Source: a virus. Taken from it: DNA of 64,000 bases. The DNA lies in the IMG/VR virus record IMGVR_UViG_3300013947_000003, positions 32,923 through 96,922 of that record; one strand, written 5' to 3'. The position numbers and the translations under genes are program-made. The notes beneath the pieces were generated by a model. That model did not search any database and was not told the origin of the DNA. It saw only the letters and a list, made by a program, of their open reading frames with translations. Shown here piece after piece: positions 16,160 through 43,504 of the stretch. Position 1 is the first letter of the stretch; every line of letters starts with the position of its first letter.

Positions 16160-16173
16160 AATATTAAATTTAG

Positions 16174-16246
16174 TCGCCCCACTCAGAGTCGAACTGAGAT
16201 CTTCAGATTTAGAGTCTGTAGTAATAAACCGTTATACTATAGGGCA
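16174..16246 (-). tRNA. Amber-suppressor tRNA, anticodon CUA (reads UAG)
   Basis: Minus-strand sequence tgcccta ta gtataacggtttattac t acaga CT-CTA-AA tctga agat ctcag ttcgact ctgag tggggcg a. Cloverleaf with a canonical T-loop. The anticodon corresponds to plus-strand tag at 16210-16212. Confidence 0.75.
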
Positions 16247-16497: not shown

Positions 16498-16564
16498 TGC
16501 GGTTCCTAGTAGATTCGAACTACTATCTTCCATTTCAGGAGTAATACCATTATACTAAGGAACC
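16498..16564 (-). tRNA. tRNA-like element with truncated anticodon arm (pseudo-tRNA?)
   Basis: The acceptor (ggttcct/aggaacc), D-arm and T-arm (agtag ttcgaat ctact) are good. Only 16 nt (tcctgaaatggaagat) lie where about 22-23 nt are expected. Confidence 0.4.
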
Positions 16565-16644
16565 AAGCTCCCTCCTTCCGTCTTCTCAGATTAAGGGAGG
16601 TTATTGTACAAATTAACAACAATTAAACATCTTTCCACCGTGTG

Positions 16645-24836: not shown

Positions 24837-24861
24837 TTAAACCCCCTCCTTCCGCTCTACA

Positions 24862-24901
24862 TACCCTCCTGGGAATTATTCCTGGGAGGGTATTTTTTTT
24901 T
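24862..24901 (+). terminator. Rho-independent terminator ending the island operon
   Basis: taccctcc...ggagggta hairpin followed by T9. Confidence 0.7.
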
Positions 24902-25134: not shown

Positions 25135-25258
25135 CAGTTGGTGGTGCACCGAGTAACTTATAAAAAATCAAAAGGATAAGTTAAATTATAGCTTTTTTTA
25201 CCCGCTATTAATTCTCCTCCTTTTTGGTTTTTTATTTGCACACCTTAAAATTTATATA

Positions 25259-25266
25259 TAATTTTG
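25259..25266 (+). promoter_or_regulatory. Bacteroidota-type -7 element TAATTTTG
   Basis: Ends about 10 nt before the tRNA-Leu 5' end. Confidence 0.45.
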
Positions 25267-25276
25267 TATAAAATAA

Positions 25277-25362
25277 GCCCTTATGATGGAATTGGTAGAC
25301 ATGAGAGACTTAAAATCTCTTGGCCATTATTGGCTGTGTGGGTTCGAGTCCCACTAGGGGTA
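25277..25362 (+). tRNA. tRNA-Leu (anticodon UAA), type II with long variable arm
   Basis: gccctta tg..aattggtaga.. agaga ct-TAA-aa tctct, variable arm tggccattattggctgtg, T-arm tgggttcgagtccca, 3' strand taggggt a. Collinear with bacterial tRNA-Leu(UAA). Confidence 0.8.
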
Positions 25363-25394
25363 CAATTAACAGTATTAACTTAAAACTAAACAAA

Positions 25395-25859
25395 ATGGAG
25401 TACATTTACAAGATGACTTTAGTGGCAGGTGGAACCACTATCTGTACAAGAAAAGTAAGAACAAAAGAAGAAGGTGAATTTCAAGCAAAAGAAATTCTAA
25501 AAAACAGACAAGATGTAGTAAAAGTGGAATACTATATCAAAGAAGGAGAAAAAAATAAATGTAATCCTTCGAAAGAAGAAAAAGTATATAACTACATACT
25601 CAAAACGTACTCACAGTTATACGAAACTCCCCTTAAAAAATACCCTAATGTATCTACATTAGCGGTTTTTGGTGCTACATCTAAAATAGTAGATGATATA
25701 GAGAGCTATCTTAATATATCTTTTAATGGAGATAGGACATCTTTAGAAGAAGGAGCTCTCTTCATACGCAAACATATAGAAGACCTCTATAATGCAATAG
25801 AAAAGTATAAAATGGACCTCTATAATGCCGACATAGTCGATATTATAGACACATATTAA
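25395..25859 (+). CDS. Hypothetical 154-aa early protein
   Basis: Internal ATG of track ORF 25320..25859, whose 5' part overlaps tRNA-Leu. Confidence 0.5.
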   Translation: MEYIYKMTLVAGGTTICTRKVRTKEEGEFQAKEILKNRQDVVKVEYYIKEGEKNKCNPSKEEKVYNYILKTYSQLYETPLKKYPNVSTLAVFGATSKIVDDIESYLNISFNGDRTSLEEGALFIRKHIEDLYNAIEKYKMDLYNADIVDIIDTY

Positions 25860-26025: not shown

Positions 26026-26122
26026 GACTATATAGTTTATGTGTTAAAACATTCTTATATTACCTATGTGAAAAGTGCATGGGGTTATAAGAAAGAAGTA
26101 AGTTCGCAACTTACTGTAGTCG
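26026..26122 (+). tRNA. tRNA-like element A: canonical acceptor, D and T arms but 32 nt between the anticodon-stem halves
   Basis: gactata ta gttt atgtgtta aaac a ttctt [atattacctatgtgaaaagtgcatggggttat] aagaa agaa gtaag ttcgcaa cttac tgtagtc g. The insert can form an extra helix, cctatg/catggg. Confidence 0.45.
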
Positions 26123-26141
26123 CACTTCATTTTGTAATAAT

Positions 26142-26261
26142 AGGTATATAGTTTAACTAAAGTAAAACACCATTACAGTCTATTTTTAGAGTGTTAGTTT
26201 GATTTTTTGTTGGCCATTGTTTTCAGTAATGGAGATATAGGTTCAAATCCTATTATACCTT
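26142..26261 (+). tRNA. tRNA-like element B: possible tRNA-Glu(UUC) with a 44-53 nt insertion in or next to the anticodon arm
   Basis: aggtata ta gttt..aaac a ccatt [53 nt] aatgg agat atagg ttcaaat cctat tatacct. ccatt is duplicated (26170, 26214). The second copy gives the arm ccattg ttTTCag taatgg. Confidence 0.45.
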
Positions 26262-26321
26262 CTATATAAGTATCGTTTTTAGATTGTTAAAACTAGTGGT
26301 ACGTGAGTATAGCTAGTATAT

Positions 26322-26395
26322 GGTCCTTTAGCTTAGTTGGTTAGAGCACCTGACTCATAATCAGGGAGTCGTAGGTTCAAGCCCTACAAGGACCA
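26322..26395 (+). tRNA. tRNA with anticodon CAU (elongator Met or Ile2)
   Basis: ggtcctt ta gctt agttggtta gagc a cctga ct-CAT-aa tcagg gagtc gtagg ttcaagc cctac aaggacc a. Confidence 0.85.
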
Positions 26396-26441
26396 CTTCA
26401 TTGTATTGTTGGTTTTAAGTGAAACAATTGGTTATTAACCA

Positions 26442-26509
26442 GGCTCTTTAGTTTAATGTAAAACATTCTATAGTATAGAAAGATGTAGGGTCATATCCTA
26501 CAAGAGCTG
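26442..26509 (+). tRNA. tRNA-like element C with a 15-nt anticodon arm and non-canonical T-loop
   Basis: ggctctt ta gttt aatgta aaac a ttcta tagta tagaa agat gtagg gtcatat cctac aagagct g. Confidence 0.35.
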
Positions 26510-26567: not shown

Positions 26568-26606
26568 ACCTTGCGGTTCGTGAGAATAGCAAGGTTTTAT
26601 TTTTTA
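26568..26606 (+). terminator. Rho-independent terminator after the tRNA cluster
   Basis: accttgc/gcaaggt hairpin followed by tttatttttt. Confidence 0.6.
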
Positions 26607-32740: not shown

Positions 32741-33727
32741 ATGTTTAGCCACGGACAGCCAACTATATCAATAGATGATGTTTTAAAACATACTACTGAA
32801 GCAGATATTGCTTCAAAGTACCTAGGGATAAATAAAATTCCTACGGTCATTTGTAGTCCTTTAAGAGAAGATAAAAAGCCTTCCTTTGCAATATATTCTC
32901 CTGATGATAAAAGTGTAAACTATCGAGATTTTGCTAATGGGGATAAAGGAACTATTTTTACCTTACTTTCTCATATATGGAATACTTCATTTAGAGAAAC
33001 TCTTAAAAGAATAAATGATGACAATGTTCATAGTTCAATTAGTATTAGGAAAACTATCTCTAAAAACAGCATTATTAGAAACTCTCGCATAGAACTTTTA
33101 TGTAAAGTAAGAGAATGGAGAGATTATGATATAGAATATTGGAAGTCTTATGGTGTACCTTTAAAGTGGCTAAAATATGCAGATGTATATCCTATATCTC
33201 ACAAAATAATAAAAAAAAACAATGAGACTTTTATATTTGGTGCAGATAAGTATGCATATGCATTTGCGGAATTTAAAGAAGGCAAAACAACTTTAAAGAT
33301 ATATCAACCTTTTAATAAACAAGGCTATAAGTGGTCTAATCAACATGATAAAAGTGTAATAAGTTTATGGACTAAAGTGCCTTCTTTTGGGGATAGAGTA
33401 TGTATATGCTCCTCCCTAAAAGATGCACTATGTCTATGGGCTAATACAGGAATTCCTTCAATTGCCATTCAAGGAGAAGGCTATAGTATGAGTAATACTG
33501 CAATTAATGAACTCAAAAGGCGTTTTAAACAAGTTTTTATATGTTTGGATAATGATCCTCCGGGCTTGTTAGATGCACAAAAGTTAGCTTCAAAAACAGA
33601 GTTTATTAATATAGTTCTTCCTAATGAATACAATCAAAAAGACATTTCTGACTTATACAAATATTTAAACAACAAACAACTCTTTATTAACATTTTTAAA
33701 AAGCTTTTTAATTATGGAACCTCGTAA
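32741..33727 (+). CDS. DnaG-type (Toprim) DNA primase
   Basis: Toprim motifs ICSSLKDALCLW and VFICLDNDPPG. N-terminal PLREDKKPSF segment. Confidence 0.7.
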   Translation: MFSHGQPTISIDDVLKHTTEADIASKYLGINKIPTVICSPLREDKKPSFAIYSPDDKSVNYRDFANGDKGTIFTLLSHIWNTSFRETLKRINDDNVHSSISIRKTISKNSIIRNSRIELLCKVREWRDYDIEYWKSYGVPLKWLKYADVYPISHKIIKKNNETFIFGADKYAYAFAEFKEGKTTLKIYQPFNKQGYKWSNQHDKSVISLWTKVPSFGDRVCICSSLKDALCLWANTGIPSIAIQGEGYSMSNTAINELKRRFKQVFICLDNDPPGLLDAQKLASKTEFINIVLPNEYNQKDISDLYKYLNNKQLFINIFKKLFNYGTS

Positions 33728-34375: not shown

Positions 34376-35392
34376 ATGGAAAGTATACAGAAAGACATTT
34401 GTTCAAGATTTATAGACTTCTTTGGAGAAGACTTTGTTGATGTACAAGAACCAGCTAATACATCTACTATTAAAATAATAATATATTTTCCTAAACTAAC
34501 GGTAACTAATGAGGGTAATGACAGTATTGACATTAAAGATACTTATGTAAGGTTTAGTATATATGATGACGGTTCTATAAGCACGCACATTAATGTAGCA
34601 AGGGCTTATTATACATATAAACAATATGCCAGTCATTATGTACATAGTCATTGTCCCAGATTTAATACGCCAGGCCAATGGTCAGCCTTTTGTTTAGGAA
34701 CAGGTCCTATAACATTTACTATGTTTAATATTTGTAGAAATATTACAAATGGTAATGTAGATTTAGACCTATATACGCTCTTTGCAAGTGAGCTAAAACT
34801 ATTATTAGGAGTGGAGTCTTTAGATGGAGGTCCTTACATAACATTAAGTTCTGTACATAATTATACCGAATATCTGGAAGAACTACAAATTCAATATAAT
34901 ATAAAGATGAGAGACTCTTTAATGGATGGATTTATAGACTATTTATGTAGAATACAACCATTTGAGTTTAATTTTAACGGTTATTATTATGGATTTGCAT
35001 ATAGTACTTCGGATTTAATGATATTAATGGCAAATGAGTTTATAAAGTATTGTAATACCTTTAGCGAGGATAAAAGGCCTAATATGGATACTTTATTTTC
35101 ATTAGGAGTTTTGTGTAAAGGATTTAAACGTTCTGGACGTATTTATAAATACACTAACGGAACATTAAGTGTTAATAATATACCAAAAGCAACTGCTATT
35201 ACTTTCAAAGGAAAAGTTGTTCCTTTAATAGTTGAACCTGATAAATCAAATAAAAAGTCCTATATAGTACTTTTAAATCCTAGTAAATTTGCATATGTAA
35301 CAACAACAATATTAGAAAGACTAAATTATGCAGCAACAAGTGGAAATCACCCAGAATCACCAAGTATCACCATACTTAATTGTGGGCAGTGA
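34376..35392 (+). CDS. 338-aa protein with an E2/UBC-like active-site pattern (hypothesis)
   Basis: YVHSHCPRFNTPGQWSAFCLGTGP (HxH at nt 34643-34651, Cys at 34691-34693) resembles the E2 pattern HPN..G.ICL. First gene of an operon with overlapping genes. Confidence 0.55.
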   Translation: MESIQKDICSRFIDFFGEDFVDVQEPANTSTIKIIIYFPKLTVTNEGNDSIDIKDTYVRFSIYDDGSISTHINVARAYYTYKQYASHYVHSHCPRFNTPGQWSAFCLGTGPITFTMFNICRNITNGNVDLDLYTLFASELKLLLGVESLDGGPYITLSSVHNYTEYLEELQIQYNIKMRDSLMDGFIDYLCRIQPFEFNFNGYYYGFAYSTSDLMILMANEFIKYCNTFSEDKRPNMDTLFSLGVLCKGFKRSGRIYKYTNGTLSVNNIPKATAITFKGKVVPLIVEPDKSNKKSYIVLLNPSKFAYVTTTILERLNYAATSGNHPESPSITILNCGQ

Positions 35393-36377
35393 TGTAGAAA
35401 ATAAAATAAAATATCTATGTAATAAAATACCCGACACTGAATGGTCAGGAGTATTATTTTACAAAACAAAAGATACTTATGAAGAGGGACTTAAAGTTAT
35501 ATGTGTAGATTTATATTTAATGGATATAGGAACTATAACATATACTGAATTTAATACTTCCCCCTCCCTTGCTCATTATATTGCAATGAATGATTTGTTT
35601 GAATATGAACAAGCGTTAATTCATTCGCATAATCACATGGCTACCTGTCCTAGTGGCACTGATATTGCTACACTAAAAGAAGAAGGCAGTGAAAGAATAC
35701 ATTTTGTATCATTAATTGTTAATAATGCAGGTACTTATAGTGCGTTTATAACTAGAAAATGTATTACTATTCAAAATATTGAAGAAACTGCAAAATACAA
35801 AACTTTTGGTGGTGTAGAAGTGGAATCTAAGAATATATATACAAAAGAATTAACTAAAATAGAGTATAGTAAAATGGAAATTATCAAAGAAGATATAGAC
35901 TATTCTGAAATTGATTCTAGAATAGCAGAAATACAAGAAGAAAAAAGGAAGCAAGAGGAATTAAGGAAAAAGGAAGAAATAAAAAATCCTTTTTATTATC
36001 AAAAAATATTTAATTACGAAGAGTATAAAAAGCCTTTAATAAATCTTCCTATTGATGATAAACAAGTACAAAGTATTCTAAGACAAATAATTACCGGTAG
36101 TGTTCTTTCTGCCAATAATATTAAACTGGATTTATATGAATGGGTTCCTAAAATGGAGTCTATATATGATCATAGATTTAAAACTTTAGATTCCTATAAC
36201 TGTTGGATAGACAGCTTTTTAGAAGCATTGTTTTCTGAGTATACCGAGGGAGAAGGCTTCTATAAAATAGATGAGGGTAGAAATCTCGCCGAAAAACTTT
36301 ATAATGAAATATCTAAGTTTACACCTAATAAATATATTAAAATTATTAAAAACAGTCTTTTATTATGGATGGAGTAA
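35328..36377 (+). CDS. JAB/MPN+ (JAMM) metalloprotease with a coiled-coil C-terminal extension
   Basis: Exact JAMM motif HSH-NHMATCP-S-GT-D (HxHx7Sx2D) at nt 35622-35663. Start uncertain (ATG 35328 or GTG 35381). Confidence 0.75.
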   Translation: MQQQVEITQNHQVSPYLIVGSDVENKIKYLCNKIPDTEWSGVLFYKTKDTYEEGLKVICVDLYLMDIGTITYTEFNTSPSLAHYIAMNDLFEYEQALIHSHNHMATCPSGTDIATLKEEGSERIHFVSLIVNNAGTYSAFITRKCITIQNIEETAKYKTFGGVEVESKNIYTKELTKIEYSKMEIIKEDIDYSEIDSRIAEIQEEKRKQEELRKKEEIKNPFYYQKIFNYEEYKKPLINLPIDDKQVQSILRQIITGSVLSANNIKLDLYEWVPKMESIYDHRFKTLDSYNCWIDSFLEALFSEYTEGEGFYKIDEGRNLAEKLYNEISKFTPNKYIKIIKNSLLLWME

Positions 36378-37174
36378 ATAATATAAGTGAAGATCTAATG
36401 GCAGAAATAAATGCTGCTATAGATGCAATAGAACAAGAAGAACAACAGCCTCTTCAAGAGAATTCTGAAACATTATTAGTAAAAGAGAATACCATTCGTT
36501 TTAATAGTGCAGAATGGTTTAATCAGATACAAAAAACATCAGTGGCTATTGCCGGTTGTGGAGGAATCGGCTCTTGGACATCATTATTAATAGCCAGATT
36601 GAATCCTATATGGATATATCTATTTGATAATGATACTGTGGAAGAGGTTAATCTTGCGGGGCAACTGTTTTCCAATAAAGATGTAGGAAGGTATAAAACA
36701 AACGCCTGTGTTGAGAATATAGCGAATTTTTGCAACTATTCTAAGTTCAATGCCTATAATAGAAGGTTTGAATGTGTCTCTATAGTGCATTCTAAAAATC
36801 TAATTTGTGGCTTTGACAATATGGCTGCTCGTAAAGATGCTTTTAAACAATGGTTTAATGCAAACAATGGAAACTCGGAAGCTATATTTATAGACGGAAG
36901 GCTTAATGCAGAAGATTTTCAGATTTTCTGTATTACAGGAGATAATGAGAGTGCGGCTCATAAATATAGTAAACAGTATTTATTTGACGACAAAGATGTT
37001 GAGAATGCAGTTTGTTCATACAAACAAACTTCATTTTGTGCTAGTATGATTGCGTCATTAATTACCAATCTGTTCGTTAATTATGCAGCTAATATAGCCT
37101 TAGGAGATTTTAGATGTCTTCCTTTTAAGATATCTTATGATGCAACAACTATGTTATTAAAGACTGAAGTATGA
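36365..37174 (+). CDS. ThiF/MoeB/E1-like adenylyltransferase
   Basis: IAGCGGIGS nucleotide loop; DNDTVEEVNLAGQ (compare DxDxVxxSNLxRQ); GFDNMAARK (compare CTDNMATRQ of ThiF). Confidence 0.8.
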   Translation: MDGVNNISEDLMAEINAAIDAIEQEEQQPLQENSETLLVKENTIRFNSAEWFNQIQKTSVAIAGCGGIGSWTSLLIARLNPIWIYLFDNDTVEEVNLAGQLFSNKDVGRYKTNACVENIANFCNYSKFNAYNRRFECVSIVHSKNLICGFDNMAARKDAFKQWFNANNGNSEAIFIDGRLNAEDFQIFCITGDNESAAHKYSKQYLFDDKDVENAVCSYKQTSFCASMIASLITNLFVNYAANIALGDFRCLPFKISYDATTMLLKTEV

Positions 37175-40030: not shown

Positions 40031-40928
40031 ATGAAAGTATTAAAAAGAGATGGGACTCTTGAAATGTTTAACCCTGATAAAATTATAGCAGCTGTAGAAG
40101 CAGCCTATAAATCACAGGGTAAAACTATGGGAAGTGATGTGTTATTAAGTCTTAAGGGCATTATTAATATTCATGGGGAAATTATAAGTGTTGAAACTAT
40201 TCAGGATAAAGTAGAAAAGATACTTATAGACCTTGCACCTTATGATGTTGCTAAATCTTATATTATATATAGGGAAGCACATAATCAATCTAGATTTGTT
40301 AGAGAAAGACTTGATTATATGAATAAATATGCTAATTCTTCAGATAATGCAGCTACTTCATCAGAAACAGATGCCAATGCTAATGTTTCTATGAAGAATG
40401 TAGCTAATCTTGAAGGAGAAGTATATAAAACTACTAATAGAATTATTCAGAGGCAACGCATGAAAGATAAACTTAACGAACTCTTCCCTGAAGTTGCTAA
40501 ACAGTATGAAAAAGACTTAAATGATCATATTATATATGTCCATGATGAGGCTTCTAGTCCTACTTTAAAATATTATTGCTGTGCAGTAACCCTCTATCCA
40601 TTAATGGTTGAAGGGGTTGGTAATATAGACGGTATTACTCCAATACCCCCTAATGATATACAATCTTTCAGTGGGCAAATTACTAACCTTGCATTTCTAC
40701 TATCTTCACAATGTAAGGGTGCAGTAGCTTTTGGAGATTATTTTATCGCACTTAATTATTATGTAATTAAAGAATTTGGTCCTAAGTGGTATGAAAAAGT
40801 AAATGAAGTTGTCACTAATGAGTATTATATAGAAAAGCATACTATGGCTCACTATATAAGAAAAGGTATGAAACAATTTATATATGGAGTAAATCAACCT
40901 GCTGGTAATAGAAGTTATAATTCTCCGT
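40031..40928 (+). CDS. nrdD: Anaerobic ribonucleoside-triphosphate reductase NrdD, exon 1 (ATP-cone plus N-terminal core)
   Basis: MKVLKRDGTLEMFNPDKI is an ATP-cone. The reading frame hits TAA 3 nt after the proposed splice site. Confidence 0.8.
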
Positions 40929-40977
40929 GGTAAAAATAAAACTTTTTTTGTCATTTGGTTGATTAGGAATTTTTTAT

Positions 40978-40985
40978 TAACTTTG
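40978..40985 (+). promoter_or_regulatory. Bacteroidota-type -7 element TAACTTTG inside the intron
   Basis: Same CTTTGCATA context as at 37786, 18 nt before the HNH ATG. Confidence 0.4.
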
Positions 40986-41002
40986 CATAAAGATTATAAA
41001 TT

Positions 41003-42115
41003 ATGCAAAGAAAAGATAGAAAATTTAATAAAACTCCAGAATGGTTATACGAACAATATGTTTTAAAGGAAAAACCTAGGACAGAAATAGCCAAAGAATG
41101 TGGAGTATCTGAAGCTGGATTAAAAAGTGTTTTAATAAAATACAATATTAAAAAAATTCCATTTGTACGCCCTATAAAAGAAATAAAACAATATTTGCAA
41201 GAAGGAAAATCCGTTACTGAAATATCTAAATTATTAAAATGTGGTAAAACTACTATATATAGAGTAATGAAGGATTCAAATTTATCTATTAACTATACAC
41301 CTGATTATAAACAATATGATAGTAGCAAAGACGAATTAATAATTTCACTATATTTAGAAGGATATTCTTCTACAGAAATTGCGAAAGCTCTTAATAGTAC
41401 ACACACAACTATTATAAAGCATCTAAAACACAATAATATTCCCATAAGAAGTTTTGTAGAATGTCAATTTAATCACTTGAACAAAGAGATTCCTAAAGAG
41501 CTAATCTCTTATAAGTTATTACATCAGCTCTATATAATAGAGCATAAAAGCAAAAAAGAAATAGCAAATTCATTAAATGTTGATGCTGGAACCATTAATA
41601 CTGCTTTAAAAAAGTTTAATATTCATATAAGAGGAAATTCTGAGTCTAAAATAGGTTTAAAATGTGGAGAAAACCACCATAATTGGAAAAATGGCATAAC
41701 TCCATTACATTTAAGACTTAGAGAAGCTTTTGGGGTACAATTAACGAACCAAGTGCTGAAAAGAGATGGTTACAAGTGTACAAAATGTGGAACTAAAGGT
41801 AAATTACATGTACATCATATAAGACACTTTAAAGATATTTTATGGGAAATAATAAATGAACATCCGACTTTAGATATACAAAAAGATGTAAATACTTTAT
41901 ATGACATTATAGTAAAGGATACTAGATTTTTAGATTTAAATAACTTAATAACCCTTTGCCCTAATTGTCATTATGAAGAGCATAGTAAGAAACATTGTTT
42001 TGCGGAGAATAAACGTAGTGAATTGCTGGAAAATCCAGAAGTGGACAATCAGCAGCCGAGCATTAATAACAATGAAGGTCCAGAGACTATTCCAAAAGGA
42101 AGTACACTCAAGTGA
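41003..42115 (+). CDS. HNH homing endonuclease with four N-terminal HTH repeats
   Basis: CTKCGTKGKLHVHHIRHF..NLITLCPNCH. Repeated segments xTEIAKxxxV/SxxTIxxxLKKxNI. Confidence 0.8.
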   Translation: MQRKDRKFNKTPEWLYEQYVLKEKPRTEIAKECGVSEAGLKSVLIKYNIKKIPFVRPIKEIKQYLQEGKSVTEISKLLKCGKTTIYRVMKDSNLSINYTPDYKQYDSSKDELIISLYLEGYSSTEIAKALNSTHTTIIKHLKHNNIPIRSFVECQFNHLNKEIPKELISYKLLHQLYIIEHKSKKEIANSLNVDAGTINTALKKFNIHIRGNSESKIGLKCGENHHNWKNGITPLHLRLREAFGVQLTNQVLKRDGYKCTKCGTKGKLHVHHIRHFKDILWEIINEHPTLDIQKDVNTLYDIIVKDTRFLDLNNLITLCPNCHYEEHSKKHCFAENKRSELLENPEVDNQQPSINNNEGPETIPKGSTLK

Positions 42116-42239
42116 GTGGAAGTGCTACGCTCTATTTAGAATATTCTATTTAGATGAAGATATAGTCCAAACTCTATAGTAATATAGAGAAGTTCATAAG
42201 AGAACTGCATAGAATTAACGACTCTATGTGAATATAATG

Positions 42240-43504
42240 TTACAAACGTTTCTTACTACGATAAATATTACTTCAAATCTTTGTTTGAAAACTTTAAATA
42301 TCCCGATGGAACAGAACCAGAATGGAAGGCTATAGATACTTTACAGAGAATGTTTATGCAACTTCATAGGGAATTAAGACTTATAAAACCATTAACTTTC
42401 CCTGTAAGTACAATGGCTCTTGTATATGATGATCAAGACTATCTAGATAAAGAATATAAAGAGTTATGTGCAGAAGAATGGGCAAAAGGAGGAAGTTTCT
42501 TCCTATATAGCAACAACAACCCAACATCTTTGGCAAGTTGCTGTAGAGTTTTGTCCGAAATAACCGATAATACCTTTAGTTCTACTACAGGTATGGCAGG
42601 TATTATGACTGGTTCTTGTAATGTCATTACATTGAATATCAATAGAATAGTACAAGATTGGTATAGAACACTTCCTAATGGCTATGTATATGGAGATTAT
42701 CAAGGTCTTAAAGATTATATTAAAGTCATATTAGAACGTGTATATAAGTATCACATAGCTTTCAAAACAATGCTCTATGATTTAGAGAATAAAGGTATGT
42801 TTGCCGCATCTAATGGAGGATACATTTATATGAGAAAGCTATATAGTACTATAGGTATTATAGGGTACTTTGAAGCTGCTAAGTTTTTAGGAATTACTCC
42901 TAATAATAATGAAGAATATAAACACTTTTTACAAGCAATTCTTGGTGTAGTAAAAGAAGAAAATACAGCACATTCTATAAGAGATAAAAAGCGCCCTATT
43001 TTATTTAATTTTGAAGCTATTCCTGGTGAGAATTTAGCAGTAAAATTATATAATTGGGATAAAAAAGACAACTATGTAGTTCCTAAAGATCAAAATTTGT
43101 ATAATTGTTATTTCTATAATCCTTGGGATAATACGTCTATCTTAGATAAAATTAAACTGCATGGCAAAGAAACTAGTAAATTAACCTCAGGAGGCCAAGC
43201 TTGTCATCTTAATTTAGACGAACATCTATCTAAAAAGCAGTATTTACAACTTATGGATATATTTAGAACAGAAGGCGCTAATTATGTAACTTTTAATATA
43301 CCTATGAGTGAGTGTAAAGAGTGTGGATGTACAGTTAATGCCCCCATTATAGAATGCCCTAAGTGCAAGTCTAAAAATATAAAGTGGTGGACGCGCATAA
43401 TTGGTTATCTTACCAGTGTAGATGCTTGGTCTAAACCTAGACAAGAAGAGTTTAAAAAGAGAGTATATGCTAAAATATCTAGAGACACAGATAACATTCA
43501 GTGA
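42240..43504 (+). CDS. nrdD: NrdD exon 2 (C-terminal core, Zn ribbon, glycyl-radical loop)
   Basis: CKECG..CPKC Zn ribbon and the RIIGYL glycyl-radical motif. Confidence 0.8.

Follow-up and report, generated by a model that had tools for sequence, protein, structure and literature searches.

Conserved tRNA-like elements with rebuilt anticodon arms in a tRNA cluster of a crAss-like gut phage

The 64,000-nt stretch of viral DNA analysed here (hereafter the window; positions 32,923 to 96,922 of the IMG/VR record IMGVR_UViG_3300013947_000003) derives from a crAss-like phage of the gut with ~30% G+C, whose DNA polymerase is nearest to those of IAS virus (63% amino-acid identity) and crAss001 (58%), both belonging to Steigviridae. 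A tRNA cluster in the window bears three tRNA-like elements, termed A, B and C, and a second cluster bears a fourth, D. The anticodon arm of A has become a long helix and that of B a large U-rich loop, and C and D retain only a stub. The first cluster has an operon-like order of terminator, promoter motif, tRNA-Leu(UAA), an open reading frame (ORF) of 154 aa, A, B, tRNA(CAU), C and a hairpin with a T-run. Its features are given below, where R2 denotes a covariance model of the cloverleaf core constructed from relatives alone, with no window sequence included.

24861-24893: strong terminator closing the preceding unit (terminator scan)
25235-25266, + strand: Bacteroidetes-type promoter motif TTTG-N20-TAnnTTTG, ~10 nt 5' of tRNA-Leu (pattern match)
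25277-25363, + strand: canonical tRNA-Leu(UAA) (ARAGORN; Rfam tRNA model, 54.3 bits)
25395-25859, + strand: 154-aa ORF lying 3' of tRNA-Leu and 5' of element A (synteny with the cluster kept in relatives)
26026-26122, + strand: element A, tRNA-like RNA (R2, fold z-score, orthologs)
26142-26261, + strand: element B, tRNA-like RNA (ARAGORN with introns allowed; R2, 50.3 bits)
26292-26317, + strand: spacer hairpin ACTAGT / GGTACGTGAGTATA / GCTAGT, just 5' of tRNA(CAU) (hairpin listing, motif search)
26322-26396, + strand: canonical tRNA(CAU) (ARAGORN; Rfam, 73.1 bits)
26442-26509, + strand: element C, 68-nt tRNA-like RNA (Rfam tRNA model, 44.9 bits; R2, 58.6 bits)
26569-26605, + strand: hairpin CCTTGC / GGTTCGTGAGAATA / GCAAGG with a 14-nt loop, then a T-run (sequence reading, motif search, hairpin listing)

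A, B and C all feature a 7-bp acceptor stem, a D-arm and a T-arm with every stem fully paired, and CCA is encoded neither in any of the elements nor in the canonical tRNAs of the cluster. A canonical anticodon arm consists of a 5-bp stem and a 7-nt loop with U33 and a purine at position 37, 17 nt in all, whereas the span between position 26 and the variable loop amounts to 42 nt in A, 63 nt in B, 15 nt in C and ~12 nt in D. In element A, the acceptor stem (26026-32/26115-21), D-arm (26035-50) and T-arm (26098-26114) surround a helix of ~17 pairs (26052-26093) with the apex UGAAAAGUG (26069-77). An earlier reading of the sequence alone (the sequence-only reading) had drawn this arm as a 5-bp stem with a 32-nt loop containing an inner CCTATG/CATGGG helix. 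The inner helix was retained in our analysis, while the wide loop gave way to a nearly continuous helix composed of 8 bp (TTCTTATA/TATAAGAA), a small asymmetric internal loop, CCTATG/CATGGG with two wobble pairs, and the cap AAAAG. The cloverleaf fold of A gave a z-score of -5.1 on the + strand versus -2.3 on the - strand, and the G-U pairs together with these modelled fold scores point to an RNA read from the + strand.

Element B possesses a 7-bp anticodon-arm stem (26170-76/26226-32) closing a 49-nt U/G-rich loop (26177-26225) that carries the motif TTAGTTTGATTTTTTG, followed by the T-arm (26237-53). The stem covaries, with CCATTAC/GTAATGG here versus CTATTAT/ATAATAG in relatives. The proposal of a tRNA-Glu arm with an insertion at position 26/27 had to be abandoned, as the distal CCATT it relies on does not covary with the 3' strand and the proximal CCATTAC does. 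Among B-type elements the displayed loop measures 49-75 nt with the motif UUAGUUU(U)GAUUUUG, and RNAalifold gave no conserved structure inside the insert. B-type elements of relatives bear inserts of 13-85 nt, often with a second hairpin within the D-loop, and two of them (L012 3742-3902 and L014 3740-3901) show a tandem 9-nt duplication, AATAGAGAT occurring twice, which spans the 3' strand of the anticodon stem and the variable loop. Two candidate functions of B were tried and rejected. As an antisense RNA to phage transcripts, its loop reached a best non-self duplex of -31 kcal/mol versus -30 to -37 kcal/mol for shuffled loops, and as an opal suppressor tRNA(UCA) it is disfavoured by a phage that recodes TAG rather than TGA and by orthologs that do not keep UCA.

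Element C carries the anticodon arm TTCTATAGTATAGAA at 26466-80. The arm length of 15 nt noted previously holds in the window and in three relatives, two others having 17 nt, and one compensatory change (CTCT/AGAG) was found. A 69-nt sibling with the arm CTTCT-ATT-AGAAG is present in L006.

All three elements were recovered by R2 in a scan of the window, with scores of 58.6 bits for C (E 6e-12), 50.3 bits for B (E 7e-10) and 45.1 bits for A (E 1.4e-8), and the next match in the 64 kb was the genuine tRNA(CAU). The ends coincided exactly with those of the sequence-only reading, confirming its acceptor stems, D-arms, T-arms and abnormal anticodon arms. General-purpose tools, which that reading had recommended, responded unevenly. 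The Rfam tRNA model (gathering score 29) accepted C (44.9 bits) and D (45.6 bits), matched only the T-arm portion of B (15.5 bits) and left A unmatched, and ARAGORN with introns allowed, which called B by default, had to be run at a lowered threshold to report A and C. A naive scan for tRNA top halves served as a pointer only, because its background is ~10 matches per 64 kb for long inserts.

Ortholog clusters were collected from contigs encoding eleven homologs of the ORF, one IMG/VR contig and three metagenome contigs. DNA searches with A and C returned only one related IMG/VR contig and three JGI/ENA metagenome contigs, and the other relatives were reached via protein look-ups. Identity to relatives is 84-87% for A and 90-96% for C, compared with 71-78% for the DNA of the adjacent ORF, 90-98% for tRNA-Leu and 76-87% for tRNA(CAU/GAU), while the cluster spacers differ by large indels. 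The orthologs are retained across genomes in which the neighbouring protein is just 58-73% identical. The core of A, B, C and related elements was aligned over 17 orthologs and paralogs; 99.4% of the cells of 21 pairs are paired and 14 of these pairs have changed on both sides. None of 500 shuffles reached the observed covariation score, and slid controls were 35-53% paired. For A alone, 12 orthologous loci showed 98.7% paired cells and four pairs changed on both sides. The acceptor pair 1:72 goes from G-C to A-U, pair 6:67 appears as C-G, U-G and U-A, and the distal helix of the long arm goes from CCUAUG/CAUGGG to CUUACG/CGUAAG with pairing kept by compensatory and wobble changes. The search for compensatory changes proposed earlier was thus rewarded in the core, the long arm of A, the stem of B and in C. 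By these sequence comparisons, purifying selection is shown on the acceptor stem, the D-arm, the T-arm and the base of the anticodon stem.

No such constraint was found on the features required for decoding. Arm lengths among orthologs fall at 12-18 nt or 40-85 nt and vary by indels, and the "mature" anticodons proposed by ARAGORN differ among close orthologs (att, gtt or ctt for A; gtt, cat, tgt, ttc, tac or tca for B). The discriminator position of A takes all four bases (G/C/T/A) among orthologs more than 90% identical, that of B is T or A and that of C is G, T or C. The alignments thereby show neither a conserved anticodon nor a conserved discriminator base, and decoding is doubtful since a variable discriminator base is unexpected for aminoacylated tRNAs. 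The suggestion of decoding variants resistant to host nucleases does not hold, as a usable anticodon arm is missing from these RNAs.

The sequence-only reading had remarked that short inserts are odd for bacterial and phage tRNA genes, and that point stands. Group I introns have a ribozyme core of ~200 nt or more, and the inserts here measure 25-85 nt. Rfam at E ≤ 10 matched no group I intron and no other ribozyme. The bulge-helix-bulge motif, two 3-nt bulges with a 4-bp helix between them, is absent from the arms of A (8 bp, an asymmetric loop, then 6-8 bp) and B (7 bp and an open loop). No splicing endonuclease or ligase was detected among the 28 window proteins scanned against Pfam, and to our knowledge no tRNA splicing endonuclease is known in bacteria. 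The replication-module genes scanned for a protein partner include no tRNA enzymes. Other known RNAs were also considered and rejected. A tmRNA or mini-tmRNA is contradicted by pair 3:70, which is C-G in A and C and G-C in B, by the lack of a tag, and by ARAGORN in tmRNA mode and the Rfam tmRNA models, neither of which gave a match. Mimicry of CRISPR repeats or other known RNAs by the inserts found no Rfam family at E ≤ 10 beyond noise. A YrlA-type Y RNA mimic lacks support, as the permuted topology, with a Ro-binding stem made of the RNA ends and an acceptor-like stem capped by a loop, is absent, the acceptor stem is here built from the two termini and no Rfam Y RNA matched.

The fourth aberrant element lies in the second tRNA cluster of the window.

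16500-16564, - strand: element D, tRNA-like RNA of 65 nt (Rfam tRNA model, 45.6 bits; top-half scan)
16173-16246, - strand: tRNA(CUA) (ARAGORN)

D is located between tRNA-Arg(UCU) and tRNA(CUA), at a locus where relatives have 5-11 canonical tRNAs, and its anticodon region of ~12 nt reads UCC-UGAAAU-GGA. Its parent tRNA is ambiguous, with a best identity of 64%. With TAG read through, long ORFs cover 43 kb of the window instead of 28 kb and the longest ORF grows from 679 to 1609 aa, while reading through TGA had little effect, and therefore the phage recodes TAG. ORFs broken up under the standard code at 1-16 kb (- strand) and 47-64 kb (+ strand) are merged by TAG read-through.

The top half of B is 77% identical to tRNA-Ile(GAU) of IAS virus, that of C 71% to its tRNA-Thr and that of A 67% to its tRNA-Trp, and related phages possess clusters of 5-18 canonical tRNAs. 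By these sequence likenesses, the elements appear to descend from canonical phage tRNAs. Such ancestry, taken together with the conservation, would mean that the lineage converted tRNA genes and then retained the converted forms.

Related designs occur in other phages, truncated-arm elements being present in dozens of viral contigs that are not related to one another. Within other Crassvirales, cr114_1 has a tRNA-like gene with a 12-nt anticodon loop and ctbg_1 one with a 37-nt insert. A restrictive pattern, requiring the D-arm of the element family, a T-arm and no more than 15 nt where the anticodon arm would lie, was found in 26 IMG/VR contigs, where most elements have 7/7 acceptor and 5/5 T-stem pairs and anticodon regions of 3-15 nt. 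The truncated-arm elements tested scored 30-59 bits with Rfam, and nearly all are missed by ARAGORN at default. Several reside within arrays of 19-25 canonical tRNAs, and one ortholog group lies between tRNA-Ala and a tmRNA gene with differing stubs (CTAGAAATAG or CCATTATGG). In T4-like and Mu-like contigs, other elements occur singly, 16-70 nt from the flanking ORFs, and their neighbours have no protein family in common. A pattern without the fixed D-arm gave at least 14 strictly filtered elements among the matches parsed, some of them G+C-rich. No description of truncated-arm tRNA-like phage genes was found in the searchable literature.

Several side observations concern the same tRNA arrays. 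Good tRNA-like genes with anticodon loops of 8, 10 and 12 nt are present in related and other crAss-like phages (L013 5729-5801, L016 5442-5516 and L022 7797-7877). In large phage tRNA arrays a stub-arm gene is directly beside a tmRNA gene (RF00023, 62-91 bits), and a 272-kb contig holds a ROOL RNA (RF03087, 244 bits) within its tRNA array; the loci concerned are L034 3992-4600, L036 5530-6131 and L031 4370-4966. Permuted, two-piece tmRNA genes were found in the crAss-like tRNA clusters L009 (4877-5079; RF04321, 66.8 bits), flanked by duplicated tRNA-Ile(GAU), and L001 (2018-2387; cr273_1). The annotated tmRNA of cr273_1 shows G3-U70 acceptor pairing by eye and gave no Rfam match at the gathering threshold.

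As regards the remaining features of the cluster, the promoter motif at 25235-25266 is likely, from its sequence and position, to be the start of a tRNA/tRNA-like operon; the argument is one of location, not of count, because the motif occurs five times in the window versus 3.1 expected. The sequence-only reading had placed the three elements between tRNA-Leu(UAA) and a terminator. Both borders are recognizable, but the 154-aa ORF intervenes and the hairpin at 26569-26605 is not called by a simple terminator scan. Judged by its sequence, this hairpin is a probable end or attenuator of the cluster transcript, and it is kept in L003 and L006. The 154-aa ORF has 95 homologs, matched no Pfam or PHROG family, and gave an AlphaFold model with a mean pLDDT of 64 and no fold match in the PDB. 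The canonical tRNA(CAU) noted earlier among the elements was confirmed by ARAGORN and Rfam. It may be a lysidine-type tRNA-Ile2 rather than tRNA-Met, because orthologs with the same body in relatives (L003 3443-3518 and others) carry the anticodon GAU (Ile). The loop of the spacer hairpin at 26292-26317 recurs identically on other stems in relatives. More generally, a family of hairpins with differing stems shares loops containing GGTWCGTGAGWATA (or GGTTTTAAGTGA, CTGAGAAGA), at 26292-26317, 26405-26428, 26569-26594 and approximately 16571-16602 (- strand) of the window and also in L003, L006 and L013. Its members, which may be sites of processing or of protein binding, are placed just 5' of tRNA and tRNA-like genes and at the cluster end, and the apex ACGUGAAAAGUGCGU of element A resembles the spacer-hairpin loops (GGUWCGUGAGWAUA).

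Elsewhere in the window, the anaerobic ribonucleotide reductase gene nrdD is split within 40031-43501 (+ strand) into an N-terminal (40031-40930) and a C-terminal part (42281-43501), separated by an HNH/HTH homing-endonuclease-like ORF (41003-42112). The interruption is probably an intron carrying a homing endonuclease; none of the Rfam intron models matched it at the gathering threshold. Two neighbouring genes of the replication module at 35328-37174 (+ strand) gave a clear ThiF/E1-like match (E 2.8e-17) and a weak JAB-deubiquitinase-like match under the curated cut-off (E 3.6e-4).

With moderate confidence, we interpret A, B, C and D as former phage tRNA genes kept as selected non-decoding tRNA-like RNAs that are probably processed by tRNA-maturing enzymes of the host, with the arms of A and B displaying a helix or a loop. 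The elements would be co-transcribed with tRNA-Leu, the small ORF and tRNA(CAU) from the promoter at 25235-25266. Their excision and maturation could be carried out by RNase P, RNase Z and the CCA-adding enzyme of the host, by analogy with tRNAs, since these enzymes read only the acceptor/T-arm/elbow half. The products would then accumulate as stable tRNA-shaped RNAs barred from the decoding centre of the ribosome. In A and B, a conserved helix or loop would be presented on the former anticodon arm, which would make these RNAs natural equivalents of the engineered tRNA scaffold. Downstream, the RNAs may bind or titrate a host factor that binds tRNA, or may mark processing sites in the transcript.

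Several observations weigh against this interpretation. The core alignment was made using the structure and so leans towards it, with the slid controls and the leave-window-out search as counterweights. The covariation test on A alone is modest, as 8-10 of 500 shuffles attain the observed values, and independent substitutions are few, because the orthologs of A represent a single narrow clade. Neither the T-loop of A (TTCRYAA) nor that of C (GTCATAT) follows the canonical T54-A58 pattern, and the elbow might be weaker as a result. The scaffold idea is limited to A and B, because C and D display nothing, and even the displayed parts are not strictly essential, since 7 nt of the apex of A are missing in L011 and part of the motif of B is missing in L017. 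Complementarity of the B loop to the window is no better than that of shuffled loops.

The account that survives best beside it is a functional version of the same explanation, in which the elements are anti-defence decoys that soak up host factors attacking the acceptor end or elbow of tRNAs, such as nucleotidyltransferase or pyrophosphokinase toxins and tRNA nucleases. That phage tRNAs can counter defences directed at tRNAs is well established, and decoys would leave translation undisturbed because they have no anticodon. The conservation of the top half alone with a dispensable anticodon arm, the predicted co-expression with phage tRNAs in arrays, and the recurrence of the design, consistent with a host target, in phages that are unrelated and share no protein partner all agree with such a role. 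However, the most familiar defences against tRNAs are anticodon nucleases, which act by recognising the anticodon loop, a part that these elements lack, a free discriminator base is odd if a toxin reads the 3' end specifically, and the conserved long arm of A is left unexplained. We regard the decoy account as unlikely in this specific form.

Somewhat less likely again is that the elements are pure processing signals resembling t-elements or mascRNA, whose tRNA shape serves only to recruit RNase P and RNase Z, which would cleave the polycistronic transcript and fix the ends and stability of adjacent mRNAs and tRNAs, the excised RNA itself having no role. Such t-elements are documented (PMC1920247). 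The conserved features are exactly those that RNase P and RNase Z need, the discriminator and the anticodon arm vary freely, the 154-aa ORF is preceded by tRNA-Leu and followed by A, and the stand-alone elements of other phages lie 16-70 nt from flanking ORFs on the same strand. Three signals in tandem beside two real tRNAs would nevertheless be redundant, and the selection on the distal helix of A, seen in its compensatory changes, and on the loop motif of B would have no explanation.

Decay, as also put forward in the sequence-only reading, would make the elements drifting, functionless relics of a larger ancestral tRNA array. The reduced number of canonical tRNAs in the lineage of the window relative to related phages (5-18), the sloppy events seen in orthologs (a duplicated 9-nt stretch in L012 and L014, nucleotides lost from L011 and L017) and the non-canonical T-loops of A and C are what decay might leave. 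This account is very improbable in view of conservation equal to or above that of real tRNAs while the spacers diverge with indels, the 99.4% pairing of core cells with many double changes, the persistence of orthologs beside a protein only 58-73% identical, and the conservation of similar elements in phages that already hold full tRNA sets. Intron-containing tRNAs, in which removal of the inserts would yield, for example, Asn(GUU) from A and UCA or UUC from B, are hardly credible: ARAGORN in intron mode does propose models and B1 orthologs start the insert with A-U-N-N-U-A, resembling loop positions 32-37, but the "A-U" positions pair within the extended stem, neither a ribozyme match nor a bulge-helix-bulge motif was found, the arms vary by indels, anticodons differ among near-identical orthologs, the discriminator is unconserved and TGA is not recoded.

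Several known systems come close to A to D. In the engineered tRNA scaffold of Ponchon and Dardel, the acceptor, D- and T-arms are kept and the anticodon stem-loop is swapped for a stem-closed RNA, as in A and B, and the chimera is recognised by the processing machinery and stable in E. coli (PMC3753655). The scaffold is a laboratory design, whereas A and B are natural, phage-encoded and conserved, and their processing and stability would follow by likeness. mascRNA, menRNA and the t-elements of plant mitochondria are anticodon-less tRNA-like folds cut from longer transcripts by RNase P and RNase Z (PMC11693755, PMC1920247). C and D are most like them, and mimicry of the acceptor/T-arm/elbow half without decoding applies to A, B and C too. 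Different from the phage elements, which are tandem paralogs in a tRNA cluster, these RNAs are eukaryotic or organellar, non-homologous and occur singly at transcript ends. RNAC and RNAD of phage T4 (species 1 and 2 RNAs) are likewise small stable RNAs encoded in a phage tRNA region (PMC3014915), the likeness being one of description.

In the tRNA-like domain of tmRNA, an acceptor stem and a T-arm are accompanied by a long helix where the anticodon arm would be, and tmRNA genes share clusters with such elements in relatives (L009; L034 and L036, beside a stub-arm element). A, B and C are unlike tmRNA in having a normal D-stem, no G3-U70, no tag frame and no pseudoknots. Otherwise normal tRNAs that depart from the 5-bp/7-nt anticodon arm, having a 4-bp anticodon stem or an 8-9-nt loop, are known, reportedly also from mycobacteriophages. 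Element C can also be drawn with a 4-bp stem and a 7-nt loop, AUAGUAU, in the manner of tRNAs with a 4-bp anticodon stem, but it is 2 nt shorter and its loop length varies among orthologs, whereas the published examples keep an arm of 17 nt with 27:43 unpaired (PMC13092985).

More tentatively, anticodon-less tRNA mimics may form a class that is widespread in phages and has not been described, with A to D as members. These would be former tRNAs whose enzyme-recognised top half is kept while the anticodon arm is lost, cut down to a stub or made into a display arm, and they would act in trans, for example as decoys for host immunity aimed at tRNAs or as carriers of small functional RNA modules.

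The usual view of phage tRNA genes is that they help with codon usage or replace tRNAs that host defences have destroyed. Conserved non-decoding tRNA-shaped genes, if the interpretation is true, would mean that the tRNA fold serves another use in phages as well. Standard annotation hides these elements, as ARAGORN at default misses them and covariance models give weak tRNA or pseudogene scores. If the arms of A and B are indeed display sites, nature has reached the tRNA scaffold of RNA engineering, and if the elements are decoys, they would imply that Bacteroidales, in which the most abundant phages of the human gut replicate, have tRNA-directed defences as yet unknown.

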